DNA of 64,000 nt from an uncultured Planctomycetota bacterium (GCA_963752285.1 CAVVXN010000005.1:2175284-2239283); one strand, 5' to 3'; numbered from the stretch's first letter, positions 5,951 through 27,850 are shown. Translations and numbers: made by a program. Notes: generated by a model not told the origin, from the letters alone.

Positions 5951-6253
5951 GCGTGGATGGACTTAAGAAGGAACGAGATGAGGTTGTATCACACGGGGAA
6001 GAGCTCGCAGTAGCGGGTGAAGGAGCGCGAGTATACGCGGCAGAGGAGCTAAGCGGCGCGGAGCTGCGGGAGGACCTCGTCACACACGGCGGCGGCCTCG
6101 GGGGGGAGCGCGGCGGGACGCGGGGGCGCCTCGGGCTCGGGCCGGGGTTGGCTCGGGCGCGTCGCCGCGCGCCAGCTCCCGCGCAGAGCGAGCTTCTTCG
6201 TCGGCGTCGGGGCGGGGCCGGGCTTAGGCACAGGCCGCCTGAGAAGCAGATTC

Positions 6254-8112: not shown

Positions 8113-8628
8113 GGCCGCCTCCCGGGAGGGGACCCCCGCGGAGGTCCATTTCCAGGGCTCTCCGGGCCGCCGGAGGCGTTTCGGCTAACCCGTGAAAAGC
8201 GACGCACGCCCCGCGCCCCGCTCGTGGCGCCCGCGGCGTGAGAGCTCGGAGCTCCCCCCCTCCCCTGCCTTCAGCCGAGCACGCTCGGCCGCGCTCTTCA
8301 GGCCGTGGCAGGCGGTGCACGTAGGGGCTAGAGGTTCGACAGCACGAACGCGAGTTCGGGGGCCACGGCCAGGGGGACGACGTGGTCCACCTGCGTGGCG
8401 AGGACGGTCAGCCCGAGGCGCGCGCACTCGCGGCAGAGGGGCTCGTCGCGGAGGACCTGGGCCCGGACAGCCTGCCACCGGGCGGAACCGTGGATGCGCG
8501 CAATGACCGGGTCGCGGCGGGCGCGGTTGTACTCGCGGTCCGCGTGGCGGCGGTGTCGCAGGATCCCAGCGAGCGTGCGCGGCTTCGAAGGCATCGGTGC
8601 CTCGGCTCGCGCCGGCTGGGATCAGCGC
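7618..8628. repeat. Direct repeat copy 2 of phage module (degenerate)
   Basis: Matches 1075..2437. Its Phd copy is frameshifted (…ALYALVRAVEEDGSGSS then a frame change). Its HNH copy is split across two frames. Confidence 0.7.
8185..8594 (-). pseudogene. HNH endonuclease, copy 2, frameshifted
   Basis: 8328..8594 encodes the N-terminal 88 aa, near-identical to the 1922..2404 product. 8185..8478 in another frame carries ...APTCTACHGLKSAAERARLKAGEGG. Confidence 0.6.
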
Positions 8629-8753
8629 ACATGAATACTACTGGCGTGCGATCAACGCGCGCCCCGATTTGTAATTCGGCCTGGGACTAACTGCCCGGTA
8701 GACGCGCACGGCGGGCCGCACATATCATCTCAAGTGTTGATTAGGAGGAAGTC

Positions 8754-9089
8754 ATGAGAGTTTCTCTGAGCTTGCTGCTGCTCGCGGTCCTCATCCTGTC
8801 GAGCGCTGGCTACGCCATGGCAAAGGCGAGCGTGACCACAGGCCCCTGCATAACAGGAGGCGGCGTGTTTCTGCAGGTTGATGACACGTATGCCACGACC
8901 ATACGGTGCGCGATCACGATCATCTGCCCTCCAAGTGGGCCGCCCTACAAACGGGGTTGCAAGTCCACCACGGGCACGTGCAAGGCCTTCAATCCTCACA
9001 AGCCTTGCGAAGATCCTATGGGCTATGTGTATCTGAACGGGAGTCTGGTGGGACAAGGTGTTCCGTATAGCACACTAAGCGGCTGCTAG
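8754..9089 (+). CDS. small secreted cysteine-rich protein (8 Cys)
   Basis: Strong SD (aggagg) 7 nt upstream. Signal peptide MRVSLSLLLLAVLILSSAGYAMA. The mature ~88 aa carry 8 Cys. Local GC is ~55%. Confidence 0.6.
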   Translation: MRVSLSLLLLAVLILSSAGYAMAKASVTTGPCITGGGVFLQVDDTYATTIRCAITIICPPSGPPYKRGCKSTTGTCKAFNPHKPCEDPMGYVYLNGSLVGQGVPYSTLSGC

Positions 9090-9121
9090 TCACGGCGACG
9101 AGAACGGAGGAGTTCCGTACC

Positions 9122-9544
9122 ATGAGAAACGCACGGTTGGCACTTATCGTGGTAGGGCTTGCGGTATTGGCGACCGGTTTCGTCATTCTGCGACGTGCTC
9201 CCAGTGCGTCCGCTGACGACGCCAACCATGTGACTGGCCTCGCGCTAGGCACATTCGATTTCGACGGGACGACCGAGAGTTCGGTCAACGCTACTTTTTC
9301 GAGCACCGATTCGCAAGATGAGAGGCTCGTCGCGGAACTGTACCTGACCCCTGTCGGCGGGTCGGAAGCACTCGACTCAAGGGGCGAGACTTCGCGTAAT
9401 GGTGTGACGGGCGCCATTTCTCTTACGACCGCAGTCAATGAGACCCCACTCAGTTCCGGCGATCAGATTAGGGCAGTGTTCACTGCCTACGACAGTGGGG
9501 GCGGCTCGACATTCACATATCAGCGTACCTGGACGAAGCCCTAG
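9122..9544 (+). CDS. signal-anchored / secreted hypothetical protein
   Basis: SD ggagg. N-terminal TM/signal LALIVVGLAVLATGFVIL. The remainder is Ser/Thr/Gly-rich. Co-oriented immediately downstream of the Cys-rich gene. Confidence 0.55.
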   Translation: MRNARLALIVVGLAVLATGFVILRRAPSASADDANHVTGLALGTFDFDGTTESSVNATFSSTDSQDERLVAELYLTPVGGSEALDSRGETSRNGVTGAISLTTAVNETPLSSGDQIRAVFTAYDSGGGSTFTYQRTWTKP

Positions 9545-9740
9545 CCACGCTGCGCGCGTGAGCGAGCCCGGTGCTTCCGGACCCACCGCGCGCAGGCGTC
9601 GTAGCCCATCTCCTCGGCGATCCGCTCGACCGCCGGCCGGTCGAGCATGTTCGTGAGGCCCGATATCCTGACGGCCTCGAGCCCCTCGTGGACGTCGGGG
9701 GGGACGCGCACGGCGTCCCCCCCGGTCTGCCGGCCCGTCA
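9541..9740 (-). CDS. small conserved hypothetical protein, paralog A
   Basis: AVRVPPDVHEGLEAVRISGLTNMLDRPAVERIAEEMGYDACARWVRKHRAR is ~80% identical (DNA and protein) to the 17314..17541 product. The true start is uncertain; GTG is possible. Confidence 0.45.
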
Positions 9741-10031
9741 CCGCGCACCGCCTGCGGGGACGGCCCGCTCGACGTTGGCGTACGCGGGGCCGTTGCCCTC
9801 GGGGTCGGCCTGGAGGTCGATCCACCACTCGGACCCGTCGGGCATCCGGACCAGCACCGCGGGGAGGCCCGCGTCGCCGAGCGTCGCGCCGAGGATCTTC
9901 CCCCCGGCCAGAGCGTTCAGGCGCTCGACGGTGCCGCCCGCCTCGTCGGCGCGACTCACTTCGCACCGTCCTTCTGTGCGGCCGGGGCCTTCGCGCGGGA
10001 CTGCAAGTTCAGCCACAGGAATCCGTTCCAC
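9738..10031 (-). CDS. hypothetical protein
   Basis: 97-aa ORF with plausible composition (GKILGATLGDAGLPAVLVRMPDGSEWWIDLQADPEGNGPAYANV). Confidence 0.35.
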   Translation of the reverse strand: MERIPVAELAVPREGPGRTEGRCEVSRADEAGGTVERLNALAGGKILGATLGDAGLPAVLVRMPDGSEWWIDLQADPEGNGPAYANVERAVPAGGAR

Positions 10032-10342
10032 GCGGTCCCGGTGACCGCCTTCGCGATCGCCGACAGGCTGCGCCAGACCTGCCCGTCGAACTTGAAGCCG
10101 TGATCGAGGACCGTGATCTCGATCACCTGGCCCTGGTGTTCGCGCCGGAGGATCGCGCCGGGCTTCGGGAGCCGCGGGTCGCGAGGACGCGGCGCGGCCT
10201 CCTTCGCGGGGGTGCCGTTCGCGGCAGGCTCCGCGGGCGGCGTCGGCTTCGCCTTCGGGGTGCGCTTCGTCGTCGCCTTCTTCGTGGTGCGCTTCTTCGC
10301 CGCCTTCTTCGGGGCGGCCTTCTTCGTGCTCTTCGTGGCCAT
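9956..10342 (-). CDS. DUF2924-like protein with lysine/alanine/proline-rich histone-H1-like N-terminal tail
   Basis: N-terminus is KKAAPKKAAKKRTTKKATTKRTPKAKP. C-terminus is REHQGQVIEITVLDHGFKFDGQVWRSLSAIAKAVTGTAWNGFLWLNL, which I recall as the DUF2924 pattern usually seen near serine recombinases. Confidence 0.4.
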   Translation of the reverse strand: MATKSTKKAAPKKAAKKRTTKKATTKRTPKAKPTPPAEPAANGTPAKEAAPRPRDPRLPKPGAILRREHQGQVIEITVLDHGFKFDGQVWRSLSAIAKAVTGTAWNGFLWLNLQSRAKAPAAQKDGAK

Positions 10343-11621: not shown

Positions 11622-12154
11622 CGTTCGACTCCTGGCCCCGCTCGCGTCCTGGCCGGAACCGCGGCGGGGCCTCTTCGTTCGAGGAGACCCCGCGGGGGCG
11701 CGTCGTCAGTGTACCGGCTCCCCCGGTCGAGGCGCGCCGCGTCCGCGCCTCGGTTCAGGGGGCGCGGGACGAGAGACAGGGGAGGCGCCGCCGCCACCGT
11801 CGCCGCGGGAGCGGGCGTCGAGCCGGCGTCGATCGGGGAGGGCGCCCGTACGGAGTCCGGCGCCGATCGTGGGCGGATCGGCGACGCGGAGACGCGCCCG
11901 CGCTCTGCCCCGTACCAGCACCCGCACCCGCACGGGGACGGAATCCGGCGGTGATCGGCGAACCGTCAGCGAACCCGCCAGAAGCCGCTCCTGCGGCCTG
12001 ATTCGCCTGCCGAGGGCCATTTCATCGGGTTGCCGCGCAGCTCAGCCGAGCCAACGAAGTGCGGTTGCGCCGCAGGTCCGGACCGGCTATCTTCGATTTC
12101 TCGCGCCTTCCTGGACGCGAGCGGGTCCAGGGGGCCCCGGCCAGGAGGACCAAC

Positions 12155-12487: not shown

Positions 12488-13750
12488 GTGCCAGGTAGCG
12501 GACTTCGTACCCGAGGTCAACAAGTGGCGTGCGGGGCGGATCATGCGCGGTGCTCCAACGTGTCCAAGGCATCTCCGTGCCGCGGATGCCGAAGAGCAAC
12601 CCAGAACGAGGAGCACGCCGACCGGGCACTGCAATTCGCTGTGCAAATGGAGCACGCCGGGTCGAACTACGCCGCACCGTTCTGGCGCGTGGCCGCTGTC
12701 GCGGAGCGCTATCGCCGATCCGATCGCGGACTAGAGCATGCAAGAACGGACGCCTACGTACACCGCGTTCTGGATGCCGCATCGGAGTTTGCAGATGTGC
12801 TCGGACGGGGCCCTTATGGAGGCGGCCGGTATCCCCAGCATGCGTGGAGCCTGCTTCTCGGCGATGGCGAGGAACCGACAGGGGACGGTGAGCCTAGGTC
12901 AGGCGGAGGCGATGGAGACACGACAGATGAGGAGGCGAGGGCGGCGCGAGAAGGGCCCGACTGGAAGCCTCTGTTGGACTTTCTTACGGATGACGGCGAG
13001 ACGTACTCACCCGGGCAGGGCGGTGGGGGCGACACAAGCGGCAGCCCCGCATGCAAGGTCACGCGCTGGGCATACCCGTACTATTGGTCGCCACAGCCAC
13101 CAAGCGGCGCAAAGACGACCAACCGGCGTGGTGTTGGACTCTACTTCGAAGCAGAGGTCGAGTTCGAGAACGATCCACCCCGGTACCTTTGTAGTTGCTG
13201 CGTGTTCCGGCAATTCATCCGGGCTACAGCAGGCTCATCGTCTGCGCCCGCTGCTGGGTGGCGACGAGACAAGGAAGGGGGGGGCAAGGAGTATGGCGGA
13301 GCTCGTGTTGACGGGAGTACAGGTTCTTCGCCCGATGAGGCGGGGCGCGAGAAGGGCGAGTATTCAGCCGACGGGTGCATCCTCTCCTTTGACGACATGC
13401 CTCGAAAGCGCGGACAGCTCGTCCTTGGCGTCCTTGAACTGACTTGGGACTTTGTCGGAGTGGTGTATGACCGCTGTAACAACTGGGTCTTCGTGGACGC
13501 TAGACGGTTCCTCTTTTGGCGCAAAGTCACGCTCACCGCGGACGAGGAGGGCGACACTCTCGTGACGGATGCAGAGGGCTCGCCGGCGCTGCACAAAGAT
13601 GTCAGTCCCGAGGCCGGGGCGTCGGCTTGGACTCACAACAGTGCCGGCGGACCGGGTCGGATGCCGGGAACGAATTTCCCTCAGCCTCCCAAGAGCGAGG
13701 CGAAGCGAATGCTCAAGCGTGAGCGCCGCCGACGCACCGGGGGGCGATGA
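12488..13750 (+). CDS. large hypothetical protein (Gly/Asp-rich linker, C-terminal Cys-containing domain)
   Basis: 420-aa ORF. The true start may be internal (MEHAGSNYAAPFWRV). Segments RGVGLYFEAEVEFENDPPRYLCSCCVFRQFIRA and LVLGVLELTWDFVGVVYDRCNNWVFVDARRFLFW match no known family. It overlaps the next gene by ATGA. Confidence 0.5.
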   Translation: MPGSGLRTRGQQVACGADHARCSNVSKASPCRGCRRATQNEEHADRALQFAVQMEHAGSNYAAPFWRVAAVAERYRRSDRGLEHARTDAYVHRVLDAASEFADVLGRGPYGGGRYPQHAWSLLLGDGEEPTGDGEPRSGGGDGDTTDEEARAAREGPDWKPLLDFLTDDGETYSPGQGGGGDTSGSPACKVTRWAYPYYWSPQPPSGAKTTNRRGVGLYFEAEVEFENDPPRYLCSCCVFRQFIRATAGSSSAPAAGWRRDKEGGGKEYGGARVDGSTGSSPDEAGREKGEYSADGCILSFDDMPRKRGQLVLGVLELTWDFVGVVYDRCNNWVFVDARRFLFWRKVTLTADEEGDTLVTDAEGSPALHKDVSPEAGASAWTHNSAGGPGRMPGTNFPQPPKSEAKRMLKRERRRRTGGR

Positions 13751-14253
13751 GCTGCTCGCGAGCCGTTCTTCTCGTCGTCCTCGGAGGCCTGACACTGGCA
13801 GCGGGGACTCTCCTCTGGCTGCCGTCGTGTGCGAGTCGGACGTCGGGGCGCATTAGAGGGCCTGCGCCCTGCACAGCCGGGCTCACCATAGGCATTGCGC
13901 CGACACCCGACGGGGTCAATCCGCGCCTCATGGAGTACTACTTGGAACTCTCTGCGGATGGCAGAGCTTGGTGCGGGGAACCGCATGGTGTTGAGACGTG
14001 GGGAATCCTCGATGACGCGCGTGGTGGGCGTGTTCGGATTCGCTACGCGGCATCGTACAGCAGTGAGCCATGGGAAGCACAGGTTACGGAGCGGAGCCAA
14101 CGCCGCGTCGAGGCGTTGCCGCCGGATGCCACGGACACGTTCGAGTTCAAGGGTGACGGAGGCCTGGTCCTGGTGGAATCGACAGTTGGCCATCCACTGG
14201 GAGCGTGGCGTCTTGTGTCGGTTGAGAACGGACGGCTCCACGGTGAAAGGTAG
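13747..14253 (+). CDS. putative lipoprotein
   Basis: Signal MSCSRAVLLVVLGGLTLAAGTLLWLPSC with a lipobox-like Cys. 168 aa. Translationally coupled to the upstream gene. Confidence 0.5.
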   Translation: MSCSRAVLLVVLGGLTLAAGTLLWLPSCASRTSGRIRGPAPCTAGLTIGIAPTPDGVNPRLMEYYLELSADGRAWCGEPHGVETWGILDDARGGRVRIRYAASYSSEPWEAQVTERSQRRVEALPPDATDTFEFKGDGGLVLVESTVGHPLGAWRLVSVENGRLHGER

Positions 14254-14540
14254 GGGATCTCCGGGGGCACCAGACCCGCCCTGGGCCAGTGTCGTCCCGG
14301 CGAGCGACGCCGAGTTCGTAGGCGCGCAGGTTCAGGTGTGTCAAGCGTCGCTCAGCGGCGCCCTCCAACAGCAGGGATATGCCGATGTCGGGATCCCGTA
14401 CTCGCCCGGCTGCTCTCTCCCGTACCAGCACCCGTACCAGCACGGGCGCGTGATTCGGCGTGGATCGGGGAGTTATCGGGGAATCCCGTGCTGGCACGCG
14501 TGGCGCCGGAATCGGCCGCCAGGGCGCATTTCATCGGGGT

Positions 14541-14609
14541 CAGTGGCGCAGGTGCCACCCCGGTTTCCTAAACCGGGGGTCGCAGGTTCGAGTCCTGCCG
14601 GGGATACCA
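14541..14609 (+). tRNA. tRNA-Arg(CCT) 3' portion (D-arm to CCA); 5' acceptor strand absent, so attL/attR-type remnant
   Basis: T-arm gcagg-ttcgagt-cctgc. Acceptor 3' strand cggggat, discriminator A, then CCA at 14607..14609. Anticodon stem ccggt/accgg with loop ttCCTaa. D-stem gtgg/ccac. The 7 nt at 14534..14540 (tcggggt) cannot pair with the 3' acceptor strand. Confidence 0.55.
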
Positions 14610-14776: not shown

Positions 14777-15928
14777 GTGACCACCGGGCGCGGACACCGG
14801 TGGTCGTTTCAGAGCGCGAGGCCCATGAATCGGGCCCTCCTGGAGGTGTCGCCCCGCGGAGGTACATCAGCGCTCCCACGGAACCCGTACGGAGCTCTCG
14901 GAATGCCCTGGCTGAGGTCGCGCGTCGAACGGTCCACCGGTCTCCAGACCTGGTCCATCGAGTGGCGCGAGGGCGGCCGGACGGGAAAGGTCCGCCACCG
15001 CGTGCTGGGCCCCGTCACCGAGCAGGATGCGCAGTACGAGCTCGCCGCCATGAACGCCGGCCGCCGCACGCGCCGCGAGAAGCGCGTCGTCGCCCCCGCC
15101 CGCGCCGTCGAGGACTACCTGCGGCATCTCAAAGCCTCCGGCCGCCGAGAAGGCACGGTCGCCCACGACCGCGACAAGCTGAAGCCGCTACTCGACGCGT
15201 GGGGCCACCGGCCGCTCTCCGAGTGGGCCCGCTCCCACCTCGAGGCCCTCCTGGCCGACCGCGGCTGGGCCACGACGCGCGTGCGGAACGCCGTTGGCGT
15301 CTACCGCCGCTTCGTTTCCTGGTGTGACCAGGTCGGCATCTCGTGCGGTGACTTCGTGGCGGGATACAAGCCCCCCCGCCTCCGCCCCCCGGACGAACCC
15401 GAGGCGCTCGCGGCCGAGCAGGCACGCCAGCTCCTCGACGCCGCCCACGACCACGCCCTGGAGGTCCCCGTGGCCCTCGCCCTCCTCGCCGGCCTCTCCC
15501 GCGGGGATCTCCGCGCCCTCACGTGGAAGGAGGTCGACCTGGACGCCGGCCTCATTACGCGCCCCCGGCACAAGACCGGCAGGAGGCTTCGCCTCCCTAT
15601 CTCGCCGCCGCTGCGTGACGTCCTGGAGCGCCACCGCCGGCGCGCCGGCCCCGTCTGCCCCCGCCTCCCGAAGTCCGATTCTTCGCTCTCGAAGTCCCTC
15701 CACCGCCTCTGTGACCGGGCCGGCATCCCCCGCGGCGGCTGGCATCGGCTGCGCCACACGGCCGCCACCCTCCTGGCGGCCGCGGGGACGGACGTGGCCA
15801 CGATCGGGCGGATCCTCGGGCATCGGCCCGGGAGCGTCGTCACCCTGCGGTACCTTCACACGGACGATGAACGGCTGAGGCAGGCTGCAGACGCCGTCGC
15901 CGACGCGGTTCAGCGGGCCCAGGTATAG
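14777..15928 (+). CDS. tyrosine recombinase / phage integrase
   Basis: C-terminus HRLRHTAATLLAAAGTDVATIGRILGHRPGSVVTLRYLH shows the R..HxxR..Y catalytic signature. It lies 170 bp downstream of the tRNA fragment. The true start may be internal (MNRALL or MPWLRS). Confidence 0.8.
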   Translation: MTTGRGHRWSFQSARPMNRALLEVSPRGGTSALPRNPYGALGMPWLRSRVERSTGLQTWSIEWREGGRTGKVRHRVLGPVTEQDAQYELAAMNAGRRTRREKRVVAPARAVEDYLRHLKASGRREGTVAHDRDKLKPLLDAWGHRPLSEWARSHLEALLADRGWATTRVRNAVGVYRRFVSWCDQVGISCGDFVAGYKPPRLRPPDEPEALAAEQARQLLDAAHDHALEVPVALALLAGLSRGDLRALTWKEVDLDAGLITRPRHKTGRRLRLPISPPLRDVLERHRRRAGPVCPRLPKSDSSLSKSLHRLCDRAGIPRGGWHRLRHTAATLLAAAGTDVATIGRILGHRPGSVVTLRYLHTDDERLRQAADAVADAVQRAQV

Positions 15929-16134
15929 GCAATGCGTCACCTTCACGAGGAGATCAGCGCGCGGGTACGGCGGTGGCGCGAGGAGGGGTATCCATCCGGC
16001 TACCCGGTGCTCACCGAGATCCTGGAGTTTGCGGAGGAGGAAGGCGGCGCGTCGGCGATTGCGGTAACATCACGCAGCAACGTCACGTGTCATCCACCGC
16101 TCCGCGCTGGTGTGTCGGATGACGGGAGAACATC

Positions 16135-16998
16135 ATGCAGCGTCAGATAGAAGCGGGGACGATCCGAACCGACCTCGTACTGGCCGTCGGTCTGACGGCA
16201 GCGGTCTTGGGACTTGGTGTGTTCCTCGGGGCAAAGCTCCTGGGAGAGCATCCACCCGCGTCGTCGCGGCCCGTTGAGAGGGCGCAGACGCCACCTGGGC
16301 GTGAAGCTCCCGCGCCGATGCTGCGGGGTACTGCGCTCCCGGATGATATCGGGAAGCGCCTGGCAGCTGTCGAGACGGCAGTGGCAGAGTTGCGCGCCTC
16401 GCAGGCGGCAAGCCAGGAGCAGATCCAACCTTTCGTCGAGGCGTACAGCGAGCTGAAGCGTGGGGGTGCCTTGATCCCAATGGAGAGTTCCACGCCCGCG
16501 ATCCCCACTGTCTCCGAGCGTGCGACGACGGGCGATAACACGGGTAAGATCGCTCGTGAGTTAGGCCTCGACGCGGCCCGCCGGGAGGCGATGGCAACCG
16601 AGTTCGCGCAGACGCTAGCTGACCTCGAAGCGTTGGAGAAGGCCCATGCTGAGGTTACGCGCGATGGGGCCGTCACGACTATCAAGATCGACAAGTACGG
16701 CGACGAGGCCAGCGGGGCCGTTCAGCGGTGGCGGGACTGGATTGACCGCAATCTCACACCCGACGAGAAGGAAGCCTACGAGCGGGAGCACGCCGAGTCG
16801 CAGTTGATCGGGCTGCACGCGGGCCAGTTCGACCGCACCGTTCGGATCGACGAAACGGGTGGCGCCATCCGAGTCAAAGAAACCATCGCAACGAAGGACG
16901 GCCCGATGGATGTACTCCAGGGGACCGCACCTGCGGAGGCACGCGATCTCGTGCTCGCCCCCTACAGCCACCTCCTCCCCAAGCCTCCCGGTCGGTGA
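16135..16998 (+). CDS. membrane-anchored hypothetical protein
   Basis: SD gggaga. N-terminal TM LVLAVGLTAAVLGLGVFLGAKLL, followed by a coiled-coil/acidic domain. Confidence 0.5.
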   Translation: MQRQIEAGTIRTDLVLAVGLTAAVLGLGVFLGAKLLGEHPPASSRPVERAQTPPGREAPAPMLRGTALPDDIGKRLAAVETAVAELRASQAASQEQIQPFVEAYSELKRGGALIPMESSTPAIPTVSERATTGDNTGKIARELGLDAARREAMATEFAQTLADLEALEKAHAEVTRDGAVTTIKIDKYGDEASGAVQRWRDWIDRNLTPDEKEAYEREHAESQLIGLHAGQFDRTVRIDETGGAIRVKETIATKDGPMDVLQGTAPAEARDLVLAPYSHLLPKPPGR

Positions 16999-17002
16999 GG
17001 AG

Positions 17003-17318
17003 CTATCGCACTTCGCCTTCGAACAGCACCCGCCCGTCCCGGTCGTGGAGCGTCACCCGCACGACCTCCCCCTCGGGGAGCCGCCTGTCGATCCGGATCT
17101 GCCTCGCGACCTTCCAGACGACGAGCCGGTTCCGCGCCTCCTCGTGCGCCTCCTCTTGGGAGGTGAAGAACACGGGCCGCTGGTCCATCGTGAGGCCGCC
17201 AGCGAACTGCAGACGGAGCCCGTCGATGGTCGTCTCGAAGCAGACGTCCGGCAGCGTCGAGTGGGGTCCTAGGGGGTCCATCACGACCCACAGCGGGGTA
17301 GCTGCGTCGATCCTCATC
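17003..17318 (-). CDS. small protein encoded by repeat family X (complete copy A)
   Basis: MRIDAATPLWVVMDPLGPHSTLPDVCFETTIDGLRLQFAGGLTMDQRPVFFTSQEEAHEEARNRLVVWKVARQIRIDRRLPEGEVVRVTLHDRDGRVLFEGEVR. High GC3 codon usage. The same sequence recurs at 20511, 22295 and 23355. Confidence 0.5.
17003..17318. repeat. Repeat family X copy A (full, ~315 bp)
   Basis: Shared left end ...cgaacagcacccgcccgtcccggtcgtggagcgtcacccgcacgacctccccctcggggag...gatccggatct. Confidence 0.65.
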
Positions 17319-17541
17319 GCGCCCCCTCCCGGCCGTCGTCGGCCTCGAAGCCGTGGAAGACGCCGCGGGCGTACAACGCCCGGTGATCCCGGGCCCAGCG
17401 CGCGCAGGCCTCGTAGCCCATGGCGGCGGCGATCCGGGCCACCGCCGGGCGGTCGAGCATGTTCGTGAGGCCCGAGAGCCGGACGGCCTCGAGCCCCTCG
17501 CGGACGTCGGGGGGCACGCGAACGGCGTCGCGCTCGGTCAT
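17314..17541 (-). CDS. small conserved hypothetical protein, paralog B
   Basis: MTERDAVRVPPDVREGLEAVRLSGLTNMLDRPAVARIAAAMGYEACARWARDHRALYARG, paralogous to 9541..9740. Confidence 0.5.
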   Translation of the reverse strand: MTERDAVRVPPDVREGLEAVRLSGLTNMLDRPAVARIAAAMGYEACARWARDHRALYARGVFHGFEADDGREGAR

Positions 17542-17544
17542 CGT

Positions 17545-18000
17545 GCCCCCCCTCGCAGGCGAGCATGGATCCCAGCGAGGAGAACCGGCTGGTGAAGGGC
17601 TGGCGAAGCACGCGGCCGACGAGTTGGGTCATCGCACGGGCGGATCCGGTGTTGCTGAGGCTCACAAGGATGTAGGCATAGGGGCAGTCCCAGCCCTCCT
17701 GCAGAGCGCTCTTCGTGATGATCCAGGTGATGGGGCAGCCCTCGTCGAGCAGGTCGATGCCCTCGATGTCGTCCTGTTTGGATGACTTGATTGCGATCTC
17801 GGCCTCAGCCACGCCCAAGCGGGCCATGAGGTGCTTCTTCACGTCCTCCGCGTGGACGAAGCCTCTGCCCTGCTGGTCCTTCCCGGTCCGCTCGACCTGT
17901 ACGAGGACGATGGGCCGCAGCGGGGGCTTGGCTTCCGCGCCCTCGGAGTGATCGTCGACCGCGCAGTAGACCACGTCATAGAGCGAGAGCCCACAGTCAG
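17545..18000 (-). pseudogene. SF2 helicase C-terminal (RecA2) domain fragment, Type III-res/T3RE-like
   Basis: High-GC3 minus-strand reading GIDLLDEGCPITWIITKSALQEGWDCPYAYILVSLSNTGSARAMTQLVGRVLRQP matches motif VI QxxGRxxR. No helicase motifs I-III lie upstream, and the fragment is truncated at 17545 by the paralog B module. Confidence 0.5.
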
Positions 18001-18049
18001 GGGTCGCGTGGGGCTTGCGAAGTACGCCCTGCGCGAGAGGCTTATCGGA

Positions 18050-18646
18050 TTCATCAATGCCCAACAGGACGTCCAGACCGAGCATGTATTCCGGGATCTC
18101 GTGGTCAGGAAGCGCATCGCCTTCTACCTTGAGTGCATCGAGTGCCGCTTCGAGCTTCCGCCTGAGATCGAGCTCCGCAGCACACACCGCCTCACGGACG
18201 ACGACAACCGCGAGGTCGCGAAGACGCTCTTCGAGTGGGCGGCTGCCGAGGAGTTCAACGAGTACGAGCGCGAGGTTGCGCTGTGCATCGACAAACACCC
18301 CGAGGTGCTCTGGTGGTATCGCAACGCGGTCGGACGGGACTGCTTCTCGATCCAGGGCTACCGGCGTGATCGCGTGTACCCCGACTTTGTGGTTCAGAAG
18401 GGCACCGAAGGCAGGCCCGCCCCCGCCGTGGTCGTCGTGGAGGCGAAGGGCGAGCACCTCTCCGGCAACGTCGACACGGAGTACAAGCGTGACCTCGCGC
18501 AGTTCTTTGAGAAGGTCGGACGCCACGTCACATGGCAGGAACTTGGCGAGGGATTCGCTGACGCTACGTTTCGTATCCAAGTGCTAGATCAGGATGATGC
18601 AGGCGCTTGGAAGGACGGACTGGACGCGGTATTGCGGAGTGGATGA
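18050..18646 (+). pseudogene. PD-(D/E)xK nuclease domain fragment (C-terminal domain of res-like helicase-nuclease), on the strand opposite the helicase fragment
   Basis: ...WWYRNAVGRDCFSIQGYRRDRVYPDFVVQKGTEGRPAPAVVVVEAKGEHL carries the PD..(D/E)xK motif. The N-terminal part of the listed 271-aa ORF is antisense of the helicase fragment. Confidence 0.5.
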
Positions 18647-18651
18647 CGGCC

Positions 18652-19155
18652 ATGGAGAAGAAGCTCAAGCACCTGGAGTTCATCCAGCAGGCGATCAACA
18701 GAATGGCCTCCAACCTCTTCCTTCTCAAGGGCTGGACGGTGACTCTCATTGCCGCGATGTTCGCACTGGCTGCGAAGGAATCGAAGGACCTGTACTTCTT
18801 TCTCGCATACTTCCCGACGATTATGTTCTGGCTCTTGGATGGTTACTTTCTTTCCCAGGAGCGTCGCTTCCGATCCCTCTACGCGCACGTCTCTAGGATT
18901 GAAGAGGATGCCATCGACTTCTCGATGGACACTCAGCCTTTCAAAAACACGCCAACGAGGAACAAGTGGTCACGCGCACTGTTCTCGCCGACTCTGCTCA
19001 CCCTCCTCGCCGCCGCCGGCGTCGATGTCGCCACGATCGGCCGCGTCCTCGGGCACCGGCCGGGCTCGCCGATCACGCTGCGGTACCTCCACTCGGACGA
19101 TGAGCGACTGCGGGAGGCAGCGGAGGCCGTGGCTGCGGCTGTCCGGTCGGCGTAG
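18652..19155 (+). CDS. chimeric ORF: low-GC 2TM protein (SLATT-like?) fused in-frame to integrase C-terminal remnant
   Basis: MEKKLKHLEFIQQAINRMASNLFLLKGWTVTLIAAMFALAAKESKDLYFFLAYFPTIMFWLLDGYFLSQERRFRSLYAHV has two predicted TM helices at ~52% GC. It is followed by LLAAAGVDVATIGRVLGHRPGSPITLRYLHSDDERLREAAEAVAAAV, which is ~85% identical to the C-terminus of the 14777 integrase. Confidence 0.5.
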   Translation: MEKKLKHLEFIQQAINRMASNLFLLKGWTVTLIAAMFALAAKESKDLYFFLAYFPTIMFWLLDGYFLSQERRFRSLYAHVSRIEEDAIDFSMDTQPFKNTPTRNKWSRALFSPTLLTLLAAAGVDVATIGRVLGHRPGSPITLRYLHSDDERLREAAEAVAAAVRSA

Positions 19156-19549
19156 GCCACGAGCGGGACTACCGTCTCGGAGGGCCGGACTGTTAGTTCA
19201 CCGTATGGCTTGTGCCGCACGCGCGGCACCCTACCTTCCCCTTGGAGGCCGACGCCGATGGCTGCACGCCCCAAGCGATCGAAGAAACGTGGACGGAAGA
19301 AGAAGGCGGAGAGCGCCAGAGCAGCCGGGGATTGACGGGCTCACGCGCGCGGTGCGAGCATGGCAAGCGTGGAGTCGTTGGGTACGGCGGCGCGCGCGTG
19401 CCGATAAGCCTGGATCGCGTTGCTCTACATCACCGGCGGATGCCCCGCCACGCCGTTCGCGGGTGCGCGTCGGATGTCGACAGCGAGCGGCTGATCCTCG
19501 GGGCCTGCGGGGGCCCATCAGAGCGCCCCCGCAAGCCGGCCACCCTCTA

Positions 19550-20328
19550 TCAACTCTGGTTGAAGATCGCGAGAAGCGCTCCGCGGGTCGATGCGCCGCC
19601 AGTCAGGATGATGAAGACCTGGATCGTCTCGCCGGGGGCAACGGAGTCACCGGTTAGGGTGAAAGCGTGGTCACCATCCATCGTAACGGTGAAGATCTTG
19701 TCTGGGATAGTCACGGTATCGATGGCGGGAACGTCCCCGACGAGTTCGAATCGGCCGAAGTTGAGGGGGTTCCCGCTGGTATTGTGGATGGGGAGAAGCA
19801 GGCCCGTATCGGCCTGAAGAACGGGCCTCGCGACGATGGCCGCCGTCCCCGCATCGAAAGTCCCCAAGTCCGTGCAACTCTGCGACACGTTCGGGGGCTT
19901 CGTGGAGAATGACATGGAGAACTTCACGGCTGAGGCCCCGAGATTGGTGGTCGCATCCACCTTCACCTTGAAAGCTGTGTTGGCGGGAATCTGATTCGTG
20001 AGGTCGATCTTGCCGTGGCTGGGGCCATCGCCGCTGAAGTCCACATGCTCGTCGATGGTCCCATGAAGGACGTGGACGGAGTGAATGCCGCCGCTCAACT
20101 CCTTGCCGTTCTCGTCCTCGATGCGGAACGTGACGTCGCACACCAGGAAACTAGCGTCGAATGTAAACTCGTAGGTGTTTCGGACTATCCCCCCGCCCGT
20201 GATGATCTTGTCGCTCTGGAAGTTCGGATCGGCGGAGGTCAGGGACTTTCCGCCGCCGACGATGGTCGCTGCCGCCGCGACTGTCGCGAACGCAACGATG
20301 GCAATGAACAGGGTCAACGAACGCTTCA
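19550..20328 (-). CDS. secreted hypothetical protein (low GC)
   Basis: GTG start with SD ggagg. Signal VKRSLTLFIAIVAFATVAAAA. 259 aa, Thr/Gly/Asp-rich. AT-richer than the host. Confidence 0.55.
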
Positions 20329-20510
20329 CGGTGGAACCTCCATCTCCTTCGGCCTGTTGGGCCTGCCCACACCGAAAGGCCTCGCGCGTCCGACGGAAGC
20401 ACGGTACCGCAGCATGCGCTCCGATCAACCCACCTCCGAATTCCAGCAAGCATCATGCCCGGGACTTACGGCTTCCGCGCCTGGGAACCCAGGGGGCTGC
20501 TACCCTCCGT

Positions 20511-20598
20511 GCCCCTCGAACAGCACCCGCCCGTCCCGGTCGTGGAGCGTCACCCGCACGACCTCCCCCTCGGGGAGTCGCCGGTCGATCCGGATCTG
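20511..20598. repeat. Repeat family X copy B (left-end fragment, ~88 bp)
   Basis: cgaacagcacccgcccgtcccggtcgtggagcgtcacccgcacgacctccccctcggggagtcgccggtcgatccggatctg, then divergence. Confidence 0.6.
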
Positions 20599-20754
20599 GG
20601 AGGCCATCGACCTCGTGGCCGCTATCGAGAAGACCTACGACCGGTTCCCGGAGGAGATCCAAGCGGAGTTCCCGCTCCGGCGCGTGTGGGCGCTCGTACC
20701 GGACGACACAGAAGAGTAGGCGCCCATACATACGGCGACGTGGAGACATCACCA

Positions 20755-21311
20755 TGCTGGTCTGGGCGAAAGAGTTCTCAACGCACGGAGGCAACACCGC
20801 GGCAGACGTGCTTGAGGTGGCAAAGCGCTGGTTGATCGGAAGCCCACACGGTGCATGGACAGAGAAGTGCTTCGCAGACAGCCAGCCAGGAGAGTTTTCG
20901 ACGCACACTTGCGGCGACCAAGTTGCCACCACTGCCATCGCCAAGATTGATAGTGGCGTAGTGGCAGGGCTTCGCCATTACTGGGAGCAGAAGCACTGCG
21001 AGTGGGTCACCGAGGTCGTCGGGTATGAGCGTCCCGAGAGCCTCCAACTCGCCGTACGAGTCGAGTGCAATGCCCTCCAAGCAGGTCAGCGCGTGCCCAA
21101 GGTACGCAAGCCGTACGTGGTGCGACTCCTGCTCGAGCACTTCGGAGACGGGGACGATGCCGGTCTACCTATCGGCGGCGACCCCATTCTCATCAGAGAG
21201 GCTGACGTACGCATGGCTGCGGCCCTCCTCTCTGGCAATCACGACAACCGCTTTCCCGTCGTGTACGTAAGCGCTGGCGCACGCGATGGGGGTGTAACGT
21301 TCTTTCTGTAA
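20755..21311 (+). CDS. hypothetical protein
   Basis: MLVWAKEFSTHGGNTAADVLEVAKRWLIGSPHGAW... 185 aa. No family assigned. Confidence 0.45.
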
Positions 21312-21317
21312 AAGACT

Positions 21318-21372
21318 CCCCGACCGGAGGAGCCGGGGCCCTCTCGCTTCCGCGAGCGTAGCGAGCGGAAGC
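21318..21372. repeat. 55-bp perfect palindrome (hairpin)
   Basis: ccggggccctctcgcttccgc gagcgtagcga gcggaagcgagagggccccgg. The arms are exact reverse complements. It sits 7 nt after the stop of 20755..21311 and 20 nt before the IS256 fragment. Confidence 0.8.
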
Positions 21373-21392
21373 GAGAGGGCCCCGGCGCGGCC

Positions 21393-21770
21393 GTGCCGGG
21401 GGGAAAGTGGTGGCGGATCAGCGCCGATCCAACTGCAGGTGCCAACCAAGCAGGAGGAACCGACGTGACCCACCACCCGCAGACTACGTCCATCGATCGG
21501 ATCCTGGAAGTGGTCGCTGAAGAGAGCTTCGGCGGCATGAGCGAGGCGATCCGGGTGCTGCTCAACGAGGTCATGAAGATCGAGCGCTCCGCCTTCCTGG
21601 GGGCCGCTCCCTACGAGCGGGCCGAGTCTCGGCGCGGCCACGCCAACGGCTTCAAGCCCAAGACCGTGGCCACGCGGGTGGGGAAGATCACCCTGGACGT
21701 CCCCCAGGTCCGCGGCGCCCCGGATGGCGAGACCTTCTACCCGCCGTGCCTCGAGCGCGGCCATGGGCCT
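21393..21770 (+). mobile_element. IS256-family (mutator) transposase N-terminal fragment
   Basis: SIDRILEVVAEESFGGMSEAIRVLLNEVMKIERSAFLGAAPYERAESRRGHANGFKPKTVATRVGKITLDVPQVRG...FYPPCLERG matches the IS256 Tnp N-terminus, then diverges. Confidence 0.7.
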
Positions 21771-22066
21771 GTCGCCCTTGCGGGTAGTCCTTCGGCGAAG
21801 ACGATCGTAACCCCGGATGCTGAGGTGAAGGTGCAGCTGCTGTAGCGCATGTTACGCATGTTCTGGATGAACGCCCGCAGGGCGTCCCCCATGTCGCCCG
21901 TGGCACTCAGGCTGGGCGGCGTCCCCTGACTTGCGGTGAGCCCCGCCTGCTGCATGGCAGCCTGACCATCGCTGTTCACGTCGGCCCTGGCGACCATCAG
22001 TCCCACGACGCCGAGGACGACGCAGGCAGCCAGGGCGACAGCGACTCTGCGCGTGTGCTTGCCCAT
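21737..22066 (-). CDS. small secreted hypothetical protein
   Basis: MGKHTRRVAVALAACVVLGVVGLMVARA is a signal peptide. ~109 aa. Confidence 0.4.
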   Translation of the reverse strand: MGKHTRRVAVALAACVVLGVVGLMVARADVNSDGQAAMQQAGLTASQGTPPSLSATGDMGDALRAFIQNMRNMRYSSCTFTSASGVTIVFAEGLPARATGPWPRSRHGG

Positions 22067-22294
22067 TGAAATCCCGTCCTTTCTGACGTGCTCACGCGGC
22101 CCATCCCGCCTCGAACACGCTGTCTCGACCGTACTCCGATCAACGCTGGGGTCAACCCGAGGAACCGCGACCACGGCCAGATGGCCGGTCCAGGCGACAA
22201 GATAGGGCTTGGGGCCCCCGTGGGCTCCCTGCGGACCACGGACTCCGCAGTCGATTCAGGCGGAATCCCGCAGGTTAGGACACGTCCCCCTCGA

Positions 22295-22355
22295 ACAGCA
22301 CCCGCCCGTCCCGATCGTGGAGCGTCACTCGCACGACTTCAGCCTCGGCGGGCGG
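22295..22355. repeat. Repeat family X copy C (left-end fragment, ~60 bp)
   Basis: cgaacagcacccgcccgtcccgatcgtggagcgtcactcgcacgac. Confidence 0.55.
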
Positions 22356-22513
22356 ACCGGCGCTCCAGCCACCAGTAGAGGCAGCCGTAGAAGAAGCCAC
22401 CGAGCACCCCTACGAGTCCGTACACCAACGCGCAGCGCGGCCAGGGCGGCGAACCTCGACCTCCACGCGGGCACCCTCGCCCTGCGCGGCGACCTCCCTG
22501 CGCACAGGAAGAG

Positions 22514-23327
22514 GATGAACGAGATCCGCCGACGACTGGAGCGGTGGGTGGAGTTTGTCAATCCATACGTCCGAATCCGCCGCGCCATCACTGAACTCCA
22601 CAATGAGTTGAAGAGTCTCGACTTGGATCCAGAGGGGCGGAAGCTAGGGTCCATCTGGCAAGACAATTCTCCCGATGAAGCCGGCAAGCTTTGGACTGAC
22701 GCTGCCAACCGATACAGCAAGGGAGTCGGCCTCTGTTTCGGCATTCGGTCCATGATACCCGTCCTTGCAGAGTCCTTCGTAAACCTGGTTCTGAGCATAC
22801 TGATGAGACCAGACCTCAAGACCGACAACAGACTCCGTGAGAACATCCTCCGGCAGCCAATTGATGTGCGAGTCAAATCGCTGCACGTGAATTGTGTCGG
22901 CTTCTCATCCGCGATTGACTACAGCACCGAGCCGTGTGCGAACTACCACCGCTTAGTCAACAAGCGCAATGACCTCCTCCATGGCAACGTGGACGTCGAG
23001 AAGCTGAAGTTCAACGAAGTCTACTTCGACCGCAAAGTCCCAATCTTCACTGAGTACCGTTCGCTGTGGAGGCGAACGATCAGCGTGTGGTTGGGTGCCG
23101 TCGGACTGGACCAACTGGATTCTGAGCTTGAAACAGTGGATGCCTTCGTGGAGTACGTCCTCTCGTGCATGACTGACTCGACAGCGGATGTCGTCCGCCA
23201 GTTCCTTGCGAGCTACGAGCTCGGCAGAGAGGCTCGAACAGAGAGAAATGGCATTCTGTTCCCCAACCTCCTCATCGACTTTGTCGGGGAGGGCATGCCG
23301 CGGTTCGGGGCTCCTGCACTCGAGTAG
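22514..23327 (+). CDS. hypothetical protein (low-GC cargo, possibly abortive-infection-like)
   Basis: SD aggaagagg. MNEIRRRLERWVEFVNPYVRIRRAITELHNELKSLDL... 271 aa at ~52% GC. No family assigned. Confidence 0.5.
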
Positions 23328-23354
23328 GTGCCCAAGTCAGCAGACATCTCCGCT

Positions 23355-23640
23355 GAACAGCACCCGCCCGTCCCGGTCGTGGAGCGTCACTCGGACGACC
23401 TCCCCCTAAGGGAGCCGCCGGTCGATCCGGATCTTCCGGGCGATGCGCCACACGACCAAGCGGTCCTTGGCATCCTCGTGGGCCTCCTCCTGGGTGGTCC
23501 AGATCACCGGCCTCTGGTCCATGGAGAGCCCGCCAGCGAACTGCAGGCGGAGGCCGTCCAAGGTCGTCTCGAAGCACACGTCGGGGATCCCCGTCGTGCG
23601 AGGGCGCATCCCGTAGTGGGAGACCAGCCGCACGTACTCC
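23355..23640. repeat. Repeat family X copy D (near full), fused to IS21 fragment
   Basis: Matches copy A from the left end through ...gaagcacacgtcgggga. It carries a point mutation creating TAG after ...IRIDRRLP. Confidence 0.6.
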
Positions 23641-24300
23641 GCGTTGAAGCCCCGCTTGCCGGTCCTCAGGTCGTGCGTCGCGGCCGTCGAGTTGTCCGTC
23701 TGGCTGCACTCCGGCGCCCCCCCCAGACGCCACAGCCCCTCCTGCATCCCCTCGAACAGAGCCGCCATCGACTCCGAGCGGCACGGCGTCGCCCAGCCCC
23801 AGTTCGAGTACGGGAGCATGAAGTGGCAGAGCTGGTGCGGGTAGGGCTCGCCCCGGATCGTGATCCCCAGCTCGTTGGCGTAGGTGAAGTCGGTCTGCGA
23901 CGCCTCGCCCGGCCGGTGCTCCTGGGCGAAAAATACCTCCCGCTCCGGTCCCCGGCTCGCCCGCCACGCCTTCACCCGCCGCTGCAGCGTCCGTAGGTGC
24001 CCGTCCGCGTACGCAGCCGGACGCCGAGCCCGAAGGTCCTCGAAGAGGGTCTTGGCCTCCAGCCCGGGTGCCGCCGCCAAGCGTGCCTCCAGGTCTGCCC
24101 AGTCCGCCGCGAACGGATCCGGCCGCGTCCGGTACGTCCGCCCCTCCAGACGCTCGCTGGGCACTTGCCCACGCTCCAGGTGCCGACGCGCCGTGTTCCG
24201 GTGCAGGCCCGCCCTCATCGCCGCCTCGCCGACACCGGCGCCCTCGTCGATCGCCATGAACAGCCTCCAGACCTGCCTGTCGCTCGCACTCACAGCGCCG
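23606..24300 (-). mobile_element. IS21-family IstA transposase fragment (HTH + partial DDE), pseudogene
   Basis: AMRAGLHRNTARRHLER is the HTH. ...HLRTLQRRVKAWRA...GEASQTDFTYANELGITIRGEPYPHQLCHFMLPYSNWGWATPCRSESMAALFEGMQEGLWRLGGAPECSQTDNSTAATHDL...NAEYVRLVSHYG matches the IstA core. The C-terminus is replaced by repeat X. Confidence 0.6.
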
Positions 24301-25685: not shown

Positions 25686-27083
25686 CTACTCGGCATCGAT
25701 CCGCGCGAGGTACCAGACCCAGTCGGTGGTCGTCTCGTCCTTCGTCGCGAGCCGGGCATCACCGCCCACCACGATGTCGCCCGCCTCGTCGACGAGGAGG
25801 CCCCAGGCATCGTCGTATGCCATGACATTGAGCGGTCCAGCGACGCCGTAGCTGCCAAAGGTCGTATCGAGCGCCCCGTCTTCGTCCAGTCTCAGCACGT
25901 ACACGTCCCGGGCGCTCGCGCTCGTGCTGGCGTTCCACGCCATGCACGCCAGCAAGACCTCACCGCCTGACCCTAGCCCGATGGGTGCTATTGAAGTGAG
26001 GCTGTCGTAGCCAGACAGGGCAAGGGTCACATTGCCGTCGGTACCGAAGTCCTCGTCGGCGAGCAGCTCGCTGTCCGACGAGACCCCGAAGCGCCGCACG
26101 AGCACCTCAATGCTGCTCGCCGTCCCCATCGGGTCCACCACCACAATCCGGTCGTCGGCGTCCACGGCGACGGACGTAGGGAGCGAACCCGTTCGCAGGA
26201 CCTCGTCGAGCAGCGAGCCGCCCGAGGAGAGGAGGATCAGACGTGAGACCACGTTGTCGACCGTAATCCCGCTTTGGGCAGCAATTACGATGCTCCCGTC
26301 GCTCAGGACCGCCATGGCGTTGCGTCCGACCTTGTCCTCGTTGGCGGTCCCACCCTTCTTCGAATTGTTGGGGTCGTAGACCCAGTAGCCGTCCGTGCCG
26401 AAGGTCGTGTCGAGGTCACCGTCCGCCGCGAGCCGCGCCACGAAGATCTCTCTCCGGCTGGGGTAGTTCTTCGCCGGCGGCGGAGCACCCGCCTCCCCGG
26501 CGACGAGGAGCTCCCCACTCGTCAGGACGACCATCGAGTAGACCCTGGTGAACGTGGACTGGGGCACGTCGAGACGGACGATGCCATCCGTGCCGAAGTC
26601 CGTGTCGAGGTCGCCGTCCTCTGTGAAGCGCGCGACGGCGCCCAAGACCTTCGAGACGGTCTTGGCCTTCCTACCCGAGCCCGTCGTCGTCGTTACGAGC
26701 GAGAAGCCCCCAGCTACGGCCTCGTCGTCGGCCGTCAACGCCAGCGCCTGGAGCGACGCGTTCTCCGGATCGGAGAAGAGGCTGGCGACGCCGCCATCGC
26801 CGAAGCTCGTATCCAGGGTCCCGTCGCTGTCGAAGCGCCGGAGCTGCCAGATGCCGATACTCGACCAACCCGCCTCCACGTAGCCACCGTCCGATGTGGC
26901 GGCCAGACCCGTACAAGGGGTCACCCAGTCCAGGTCCCCGGTCGTGGCGATCCCGTCCGTCCCAAAGCCATCGTCCAGGTCCCCGGCCCCCGCCCAGCCG
27001 AGCGTGGCTCCCAGTGTCACAAGCCCCAGAACGCCCAGGGTCCACACGCTTGCCCTCATCACTCGACGCTTCGTCCAGTCCAT
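25686..27083 (-). CDS. secreted delta-60 repeat (FGTDG) beta-propeller protein
   Basis: Signal MDWTKRRVMRASVWTLGVLGLVTLGA. Repeated LDxxFGTDGxV motifs (8 or more). Confidence 0.7.
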   Translation of the reverse strand: MDWTKRRVMRASVWTLGVLGLVTLGATLGWAGAGDLDDGFGTDGIATTGDLDWVTPCTGLAATSDGGYVEAGWSSIGIWQLRRFDSDGTLDTSFGDGGVASLFSDPENASLQALALTADDEAVAGGFSLVTTTTGSGRKAKTVSKVLGAVARFTEDGDLDTDFGTDGIVRLDVPQSTFTRVYSMVVLTSGELLVAGEAGAPPPAKNYPSRREIFVARLAADGDLDTTFGTDGYWVYDPNNSKKGGTANEDKVGRNAMAVLSDGSIVIAAQSGITVDNVVSRLILLSSGGSLLDEVLRTGSLPTSVAVDADDRIVVVDPMGTASSIEVLVRRFGVSSDSELLADEDFGTDGNVTLALSGYDSLTSIAPIGLGSGGEVLLACMAWNASTSASARDVYVLRLDEDGALDTTFGSYGVAGPLNVMAYDDAWGLLVDEAGDIVVGGDARLATKDETTTDWVWYLARIDAE

Positions 27084-27274
27084 CGTCACTTCTCCGTGGG
27101 CAACGACTGCCCTGTCTCCAGATGGCGGATCGCGGCGAGAAGCGGACACCAGCAGGGAAACCGGCCTCCGGCCCGGGACCTTCGTTCGGATCGCACCCCC
27201 GCCGGCCATGGGGGGATACGGGTGGCGGGCGGCGAGCCGCGGGCGTAGCATCCGCCGCTCTCGGGAGGCCCGGA

Positions 27275-27850
27275 ATGGGCGAAGGAGCAAGGTCCGACGA
27301 CGATGCCGAACTGGTCCGCCGCGCCCAGGCCGGAGACCAGATCGCACTGCGAGGCCTCTTCGAGCGCCACACTGAGTTCCTCCGTGCATTCGTGCGCGCC
27401 CGGCTTCCCGCGCTCGTCCGGGGCAAGGTCGCGCAGTCGGACGTGATTCAGGAGGCGTACCTGACAGCCTGGGGGAGATTCCCCGACCTCGCGGCGACGG
27501 ACGCGGACGGATTCCGACGCTGGATCACCCGGATCGTGGACCTCAAGATCCGCGAGCAGACACGGCGACACCTCGGGACGCAGCGGCGTGCAGCAGCCCG
27601 TGAGGTCCCCATCGCCCCCGCGCAGGGCGGACCCACCGATGTGGCCGACCCACGGTCCTCCCCGTCCATGCGCGCGGCAGGTGCCGAGCGGCAGGCAAGG
27701 CTCTCTCGGGCCCTCGAGGGGGCCGACTCGGCAGACCGCGCGCTTCTGGACATGGTGCACCGGCAGGGCCTCACGTATCCCGAGATCAGCACTCTGCTCG
27801 GCATCCAGCCCGACGCCGCGCGCACCCGCGAGACGACCCCCAGGGGATCC
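27275..27850 (+). CDS. ECF (sigma-24) RNA polymerase sigma factor; 3' end uncertain
   Basis: Region 2 reads DAELVRRAQAGDQIALRGLFERH...VIQEAYLTAWGRF. Region 4 reads LLDMVHRQGLTYPEISTLLGI. The ORF runs on to 28027 over the opposite-strand EVE-like gene, so there may be a frameshift or an earlier real stop. Confidence 0.55.

Follow-up and report, generated by a model that had tools for sequence, protein, structure and literature searches.

Truncated copies of a small conserved gene in a Planctomycetota genome as probable scars of cargo exchange at a recombination hotspot

How does one stretch of bacterial DNA come to carry four same-strand copies of a short sequence that share one end exactly and differ at the other? 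The question is raised by a 64,000-nucleotide (nt) stretch from an uncultured Planctomycetota bacterium (GCA_963752285.1 CAVVXN010000005.1:2175284-2239283; hereafter the window), in which a reading of the sequence alone (the sequence-only reading) had noticed such repeats between positions 17,003 and 23,640 and likened them to a mobile or targeted element. The repeats are best read as a small gene, here called X, present once in intact form and three times as broken pieces, and hence as ordinary recombination debris and not as a new kind of mobile element. We consider it probable that they are scars left at a recombination hotspot by the stacking of cargo modules and the decay of elements.

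The 36-nt core of the repeats, GAACAGCACCCGCCCGTCCCGGTCGTGGAGCGTCAC, lies on the + strand at 17021, 20518, 22293 (with one mismatch) and 23355, and was matched in none of 100 shuffled sequences. A repeat finder returned one four-copy family, whose members are 78-97% identical to copy A over 86 nt, with the A/D pair 82% identical across 242 nt. The four co-oriented sites given by the sequence-only reading are thus sound, but their bounds had to be revised. Copy A is an intact gene of 104 codons plus stop (X_A, 17003-17317 and not to 17318, - strand) and, judged by translation, the sole complete X in the window. The others are pseudogenes on the same strand: the fragment X_B (20500-20598) holds codons ~73-104 and the stop, and abuts the 3' end of an unrelated + strand open reading frame (ORF) at 20598/20599; the fragment X_C (22275-22349) holds codons ~82-104 and the stop; and X_D (23337-~23590) holds codons ~22-104 and the stop, with an in-frame TAG at 23406-23408. 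The 3' end of X is kept in all four copies with the stop codon in register, and the final five codons vary among them (EGEVR, EGHGG, EGDVS and SGDVC, each followed by the stop). Within the core, 35-36 of 36 positions are identical among the four copies, and just 6-11 of the adjacent downstream 18 nt are. Neither target-site duplications nor flanking inverted repeats, both of which had been proposed as a check, were found at the X copies, and the exact 36-mer had no match in metagenome contigs of the Joint Genome Institute (JGI). As stated earlier, X_D runs in frame into a fragment of the insertion sequence (IS) IS21-family transposase IstA (23591-24260, - strand; Pfam rve). This fragment comprises the N-terminal two thirds of the protein (NCBIfam NF033546, 161.8 bits against an equivalog cut-off of 160, E 2.5e-47, profile positions 6-218 of 294), and it was joined to X_D through a deletion. 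Genome annotation should therefore treat the short ORFs that cover B, C and D, as well as the fused IstA::X frame, as pseudogenes.

X_A has coding-type composition (G+C content of 0.72, 0.42 and 0.90 at codon positions 1, 2 and 3), as its codon usage had suggested. A homologue search returned 128 homologues of 103-104 amino acids (aa) at 57-88% identity, nearly all from metagenomes and Planctomycetota metagenome-assembled genomes (MAGs), and a protein (P0001) 100% identical to X_A, so that the conserved product of ~105 aa proposed earlier corresponds to this 104-aa gene. X is a real conserved gene outside the described families and folds that we searched, in agreement with the earlier failure to assign it. 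Its AlphaFold model (predicted local distance difference test score, pLDDT, 90.5) gave nothing at E <= 0.001 against PDB and BFVD with Foldseek, and its sequence had no significant match in Pfam (best DUF6894, E 0.088) or PHROG (E 0.013) and no match in NCBIfam or PADLOC. Directly upstream lies the partner gene Y (17314-17541, - strand), which encodes a 75-aa DUF5049 protein (Pfam PF16468; 39.9 bits against a gathering threshold of 28.7, E 3.9e-10) and whose stop codon overlaps the X start (ATGA). The Y-X pair is conserved in L001, L002, L006 and others among the loci fetched for comparison (numbered with the prefix L); a literature search for DUF5049 yielded no papers. A cis-acting nucleic-acid element in the X tail was considered and rejected, because synonymous-codon identity is not raised there (0.53-0.66 over codons 81-105 against 0.54-0.81 elsewhere, in 15 full-length genes) and no conserved hairpin is seen (RNAalifold, -2.6 kcal/mol with zero covariation).

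X is also visited by another element. A three-tyrosine-recombinase (recombinase-in-trio) element with terminal inverted repeats ctatgcagagatcgggactatgcggag sits between X codons 66 and 67 in two different X genes of one MAG (10201-13330 in L001 and 10201-13330 in L019). It occurs in L022 as well and as a remnant in L027 (9946-10035), and a related trio is present in L025 (2146-4908). X appears to be a specific target of this element. A candidate remnant of it at the B junction was discarded, as inspection showed no similarity to the trio-element ends.

The position of X in its carriers accounts for the shared end of the repeats. In every reasonably intact context, X closes an early/replication module with the order HTH_17, MT-A70, a primase-polymerase or D5_N primase or helicase plus DnaB, DUF2924, h111 (a 111-aa gene preceding Y in intact elements), Y and X. 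Beyond X lie 0.9-3.9 kb of DNA that differ in each element, followed by a late module of HNH, two PhdYeFM, ParB_N, N6_N4 methylase, DUF1937, TerS, TerL, portal and capsid genes. This layout of X, variable slot and HNH was found in L001, L004, L006-L008, L010-L014, L016, L019, L026, L034, L037, L047, L053 and L054. When elements are compared, their homology breaks off at the X stop codon and restarts 35-45 nt before the HNH start, which makes X the left border of an accessory-gene hotspot. The "identical left end" of the copies is explained by this border: it is the natural 3' end of X and not, as had been supposed, the terminus of a mobile or targeted element. None of the slot genes tested matched PADLOC or Pfam, and the cargo consists mostly of predicted secreted proteins or proteins without a family.

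The carrier is phage-like, with Terminase_4, TerL, Phage_portal and Phage_capsid on the same elements, so that the repeat does belong to mobile DNA, as the sequence-only reading had it. No tail genes were seen in the element stretches examined; in L001, the capsid gene is followed by two small genes and then by the next replication module. From their contig coordinates, the elements of L019 and L001 (contig_22242, ~238-283 kb) appear to lie head-to-tail on one contig, and no integrase lies between the two. A set of HNH, TerS, TerL, portal and capsid genes was noted for L019 plus L001, L010, L013 and L014. Elements neighbor a tRNA-Asp in L006 and a tRNA-Leu in L021. Homologues of the tyrosine integrase found in the window (66-92% identity) lie beside X elements or fragments in L024, L026, L047, L048 and L053; in L047, L048 and L053, they are 66-69% identical to it and occupy the far left end, 7-8 kb upstream of X. 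In what could be searched, this multi-copy family of capsid- and terminase-encoding Planctomycetota elements is not described.

Comparison of close relatives indicates how the slot contents change hands. L007 and L008, from one MAG, match at 98% or more as far as X codon ~79; their last 26 X codons are 82% identical, their slots are unrelated, and homology returns ~40 nt before HNH. L001 and L004, which differ in their replication modules, have in common a block of ~100% identity that starts at X codon ~95, takes in a 409-aa cargo gene and reaches to ~50 nt before HNH. In several element pairs, X codons 73-100 have a history unlike that of the rest of the gene, giving a mosaic. These comparisons show that the slot is refilled via homologous recombination, that the left crossover lies within the X tail, and that a short X tail therefore accompanies the cargo. 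The lineage switches at codon ~79 in L007/L008, ~95 in L001/L004 and ~100 in the window, and this variation argues against a single site-specific crossover. The window copies fit the same picture. X_D matches a fragment in another MAG (L016) at 92% identity and X_A at 84%, so it stems from an X lineage other than that of X_A, and the copies are independent acquisitions and not copies of X_A.

Arrays of X tails are not peculiar to this window. A recurrent topology has a longer X upstream and a 5'-truncated X downstream on the same strand: a full X followed 2.5 kb on by codons 30-103 and then by TerS-TerL (L029); a full X followed by a diverged X tail (L042); codons 65-104 followed by a diverged tail, on one contig found in three samples (L056-L058); and codons 1-15 followed by a 461-aa gene and codons 74-104 (L021). 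In this last locus, the gene for the 461-aa predicted secreted protein (13214-14599) replaces X codons 16-73, and its stop lies 7 nt from the X tail. Other junctions include an HNH fragment (codons 1-66) that directly abuts an X copy in L040, a piece of HNH (1-34) that is joined to a piece of Y (32-67), with X after them, in L004, and, in L024 and L026, a 5'-truncated X produced by simple internal deletion between integrase and X. Over all loci and partial proteins, the 3' end of X is retained in ~18 distinct internal fragments and the 5' end in ~4 (binomial p = 0.004), a count in which the peptide patterns used for retrieval favor either class near-equally. The 5' breakpoints fall at codons ~22, 28, 30, 31, 34, 47, 54, 61, 65, 67, 73, 74 and 82; such scatter points to illegitimate junctions and not to one site, contrary to the single insertion or crossover site that had been considered.

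What the window preserves is a decayed array of at least three elements or modules in one orientation. Related elements trade what their slots contain by homologous recombination; the left crossover falls in the last ~10-30 X codons and the right crossover ~40-50 nt upstream of HNH, and the X tail moves along with each cargo module. How the modules were stacked and the other parts lost, and in what order, we infer as follows. Extra tail-plus-cargo modules would have been added when co-resident relatives recombined unequally or on one side only, when elements integrated in tandem, or in both ways, and the upstream early genes would have been deleted. Units B, C and D retain only the X tail and their own cargo, the shared left end being the X stop codon and the ragged right ends being illegitimate junctions.

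Several observations weigh against this reconstruction. The edge of the core is sharp, and a site-specific core would fit it as well. We sought the HNH-side border sequence in 14.6-25 kb and found none, and with no such border in the array, the placement of B, C and D in one slot cannot be shown. The history of the window is too scrambled to reconstruct, with opposed restriction-gene pieces and fragments of IS21, IS256 and IS3, and the source is a long-read MAG with at least one stretch that is probably junk. Selection on the X fragments is possible too, X being a gene with no assigned function.

What surrounds the four copies shows the extent of the decay. The first 25 kb of the window is a graveyard of the X-bearing element family, with a G+C content of 0.59-0.69 over 16-24 kb against 0.70-0.77 farther right. 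To the left of the four copies, a tRNA-Arg(CCT) called by ARAGORN (14530-14609, + strand; borderline, at 29.1 bits against an Rfam threshold of 29) lies 168 nt upstream of a tyrosine integrase (14777-15928, + strand; Pfam PF00589, E 3e-17) of the kind that X elements carry at their left end. The tRNA-Arg 3' end was considered as a repeated attachment (att) site, and no second copy of it was found in the window. A ~65-nt non-coding motif occurs at 11902-11976 and at 14412-14486, the latter just upstream of the tRNA-Arg; it recurs beside the tRNA-Asp of L006 (2859-2920) and at the left arm of the element in L019 (1998-2064), and may be an attachment-site arm of the family. A candidate N-terminal fragment of a restriction enzyme at 15932-16147 was dropped after PADLOC gave no match.

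A different gene or set of genes follows each X copy, which is the cassette-like layout that the sequence-only reading had recognized. Downstream of X_A is a 287-aa ORF convergent with X (16135-16998, + strand), which has no family match and no homologue among the other fetched loci. With X_A and Y, it forms unit A, whose 5' breakpoint is marked by a 45-nt remnant of h111 (17542-17586, - strand; 88-91% to internal h111 in L001, L004 and L019 by blastn). The cargo of X_B is a predicted secreted protein of ~260 aa (19550-20332, - strand) and that of X_D is a 270-aa ORF convergent with X (22515-23327, + strand), neither with a family match. Downstream of X_C lies a mosaic of fragments on mixed strands (20599-22072): a 40-codon 3' fragment (20599-20719, + strand), a 185-aa ORF (20754-21311, + strand), an imperfect 36-nt inverted repeat with an 11-nt spacer (21318-21400), an N-terminal fragment of an IS256/Mutator transposase (21393-21845, + strand; PF00872, E 3.8e-12) and a small secreted protein (21737-22072, - strand). 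The inverted repeat, directly upstream of the transposase fragment, could be a terminator or an IS end. The earlier statement that each copy begins 15-30 bp past the end of a + strand gene is accurate for A (16135-16998) and D (22515-23327) and fails for B and C, whose neighbors (19550-20332 and 21737-22072) are on the minus strand.

Between units A and B are two pieces of one Type III restriction enzyme gene (17543-18100, - strand, and ~18190-18646, + strand; PADLOC PDLC03653, E 2e-40 and 6e-21), covering profile positions ~362-472 and ~736-851. Their side-by-side placement in opposite orientations implies an inversion plus deletions. They are followed by a candidate defense gene, PDC-M50A (18652-18984, + strand; PADLOC E 3.4e-44), truncated at profile position 109 of 134 and reading on in frame into the C-terminal remnant (~57 codons) of a second integrase (18958-19155, + strand; 71% to integrase aa 319-367 by tblastn). 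The restriction pieces and PDC-M50A lie between units and not clearly in an X/HNH slot. On its other side, the array terminates in IS21 and IS3 remnants.

A decayed element of the same family, mapped by tblastn, lies next door (5361-10342, - strand). X is missing from it; present are DUF2924, a truncated Y' (9568-9726), cargo, an HNH gene (8124-8594), Phd, ParB, a methyltransferase, DUF1937, TerS and a TerL fragment. An HNH-Phd-Phd-ParB block is present twice, at 1081-2438 and 7182-8628 (6.19 kb apart, 88-92% identity), implying two decayed late modules in tandem. The TerL of this neighbor is interrupted at 3000-5400 by 2.4 kb of DNA with a G+C content of 0.44-0.57 and strong purine skew, which contains no plausible ORF and no Rfam match and is probably long-read noise or a chimeric join and not biology. 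Outside the island, four 55-nt direct repeats that are 60-82% identical (25845-26844) lie within an ORF for a 567-aa repeat-domain secreted protein (25686-27389, - strand), which has a faint DUF5122 match in the locus annotation.

The second integrase fragment and the decayed neighbor raise the question of whether decay on its own would suffice. If whole elements integrated in tandem and random deletions then left pieces of X, the retention of the 3' end would be meaningless; a relative, L019-L001, appears to have tandem elements, and L024 and L026 acquired their 5'-truncated X by exactly such a simple deletion. This account leaves the 18:4 surplus of 3'-retaining fragments unexplained, however, as well as the arrays within compact elements such as that of L029. 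It also needs three deletions of ~20 kb, each ending in a 312-bp gene and starting right after 1-3 kb of cargo, and we regard it as unlikely.

A further possibility, which we hold to be quite unlikely, is that the X tail is a homology-based docking site for mobile cargo modules. If this were true, direct repeats of the tail would let tail-plus-cargo units loop out as circles, and these would re-insert by a single homologous crossover into any co-resident X, in a counterpart of the movement of integron cassettes that depends on RecA. Such docking would account for the homogenized 36-nt core, the stacked arrays and the bias toward 5' truncation.

The abrupt fall in identity at the edge of the core could instead reflect the att site of a tyrosine recombinase, with each inserted cassette bringing a replacement 3' end for X. 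Such an insertion would fit an X-like ending with the stop in register in every copy, the integrase genes nearby and the fact that the trio element does hit X at codon 66/67 in two copies. A fixed site is, however, difficult to reconcile with lineage switches at codons ~79, ~95 and ~100 in different pairs and with ragged 5' ends. In elements with a single slot, the core does not recur beyond the cargo, recombinase genes are absent from the cassettes, and the tail shows neither a family-wide excess of synonymous conservation nor a conserved hairpin. Moreover, in intact elements, this type of integrase lies at the far end of the element, 7-8 kb upstream of X. We therefore find site-specific cassette insertion improbable.

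The purine-rich, low-G+C, non-coding 2.4 kb that interrupts TerL and the origin of the window in a long-read MAG would be consistent with an assembly artefact, in which reads from several element copies were joined chimerically. However, a second deposited assembly (L003) has the same array with small differences, the copies are mutually diverged, and equivalent arrays occur on independent metagenome contigs, one of them in three samples (L056-L058), making this explanation very improbable. Retrotransposition-like copying, a pattern that the sequence-only reading had suggested and in which B, C and D would be partial reverse-transcribed X_A transcripts with fixed 3' priming, matches the geometry of a fixed 3' end with variable 5' truncation and is otherwise hardly credible, since D is nearer copies in other genomes (92% to L016) than A (84%), the final five codons of B and C are not those of A, homology ends at the stop codon and not at a transcript end, neither target-site duplications nor flanking inverted repeats accompany the copies, 12-27 kb of the window contained no group II intron or retron RNA, and no reverse transcriptase was among the annotated neighbors in six loci (seven contig places) with gene and Pfam annotation.

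Cargo stacking and decay at a hotspot, the explanation that we favor, has parallels in known systems. The P2/P4 hotspots resemble the X slot in their fixed position between conserved core genes and in that close relatives carry unrelated cargo that is swapped rapidly by recombination (2022, PMC9122126; NAR 2026, PMC13586616). Like the window, they also contain small, degraded pieces of the core genes that flank them: of the P4 pseudogenes, 24% are similar to core genes, most often to Ash, and the authors read the small core-gene pseudogenes as remnants of intense recombination (PMC13586616). Three of four hotspot features are found at the X slot, namely position, unrelated and swapped cargo, and a phage-like carrier. 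The fourth is an enrichment of the cargo in anti-phage defense genes, on which the window offers restriction pieces and PDC-M50A between units, and slot genes for which PADLOC gave no match. The X slot differs in host phylum and element family, X and HNH are unrelated to P2/P4 genes, and its cargo is mostly unassigned or secreted proteins and not recognized defense systems. The strong 5'-truncation bias and multi-unit arrays seen here were not found described for P2/P4 in the portions of those sources that were accessible.

Other arrays share part of this anatomy. The orphan toxin/immunity arrays of contact-dependent growth inhibition (CDI) and Rhs systems are co-oriented, their displaced modules keep a 5'-truncated piece of the conserved upstream part, and they form through recombination anchored in that piece. 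In CDI/Rhs, the conserved and variable parts make up one ORF, a polymorphic toxin, whereas X is conserved to its own stop and the variable part of the slot is a set of separate genes. Integrative elements that accumulate in tandem at the 3' end of a tRNA or protein gene leave direct repeats of the gene end; the array is bounded on one side by the whole gene, and an integrase is close by. A single precise crossover core is common to such repeats, and every unit brings an integrase or makes use of one. In contrast, the switch points in X vary, the fragments reach 83 codons and the units are without recombinases. Like integron cassette arrays, the X array consists of co-oriented small units with different genes and a related short bounding sequence, but the X repeat is a coding fragment; no integron integrase was found (the best integron-integrase model reached 22.9 bits against a cut-off of 265), nor was any attC-like hairpin at the X units. 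In the stretches examined, the carriers also recall capsid-forming satellites of the phage-inducible chromosomal island (PICI) type, which likewise have HNH, TerS, TerL, portal, capsid, integrase and replication genes.

These results locate the exchangeable cargo of this family of Planctomycetota elements between X and HNH. The scars in the window provide unusually direct sequence evidence of cargo swapping at a hotspot, with crossovers in the 30-codon tail of a gene; the same process has been inferred for the hotspots of P2/P4. The X tail and the border upstream of HNH can serve as markers for harvesting accessory genes from metagenomes, in a phylum with few known phages.

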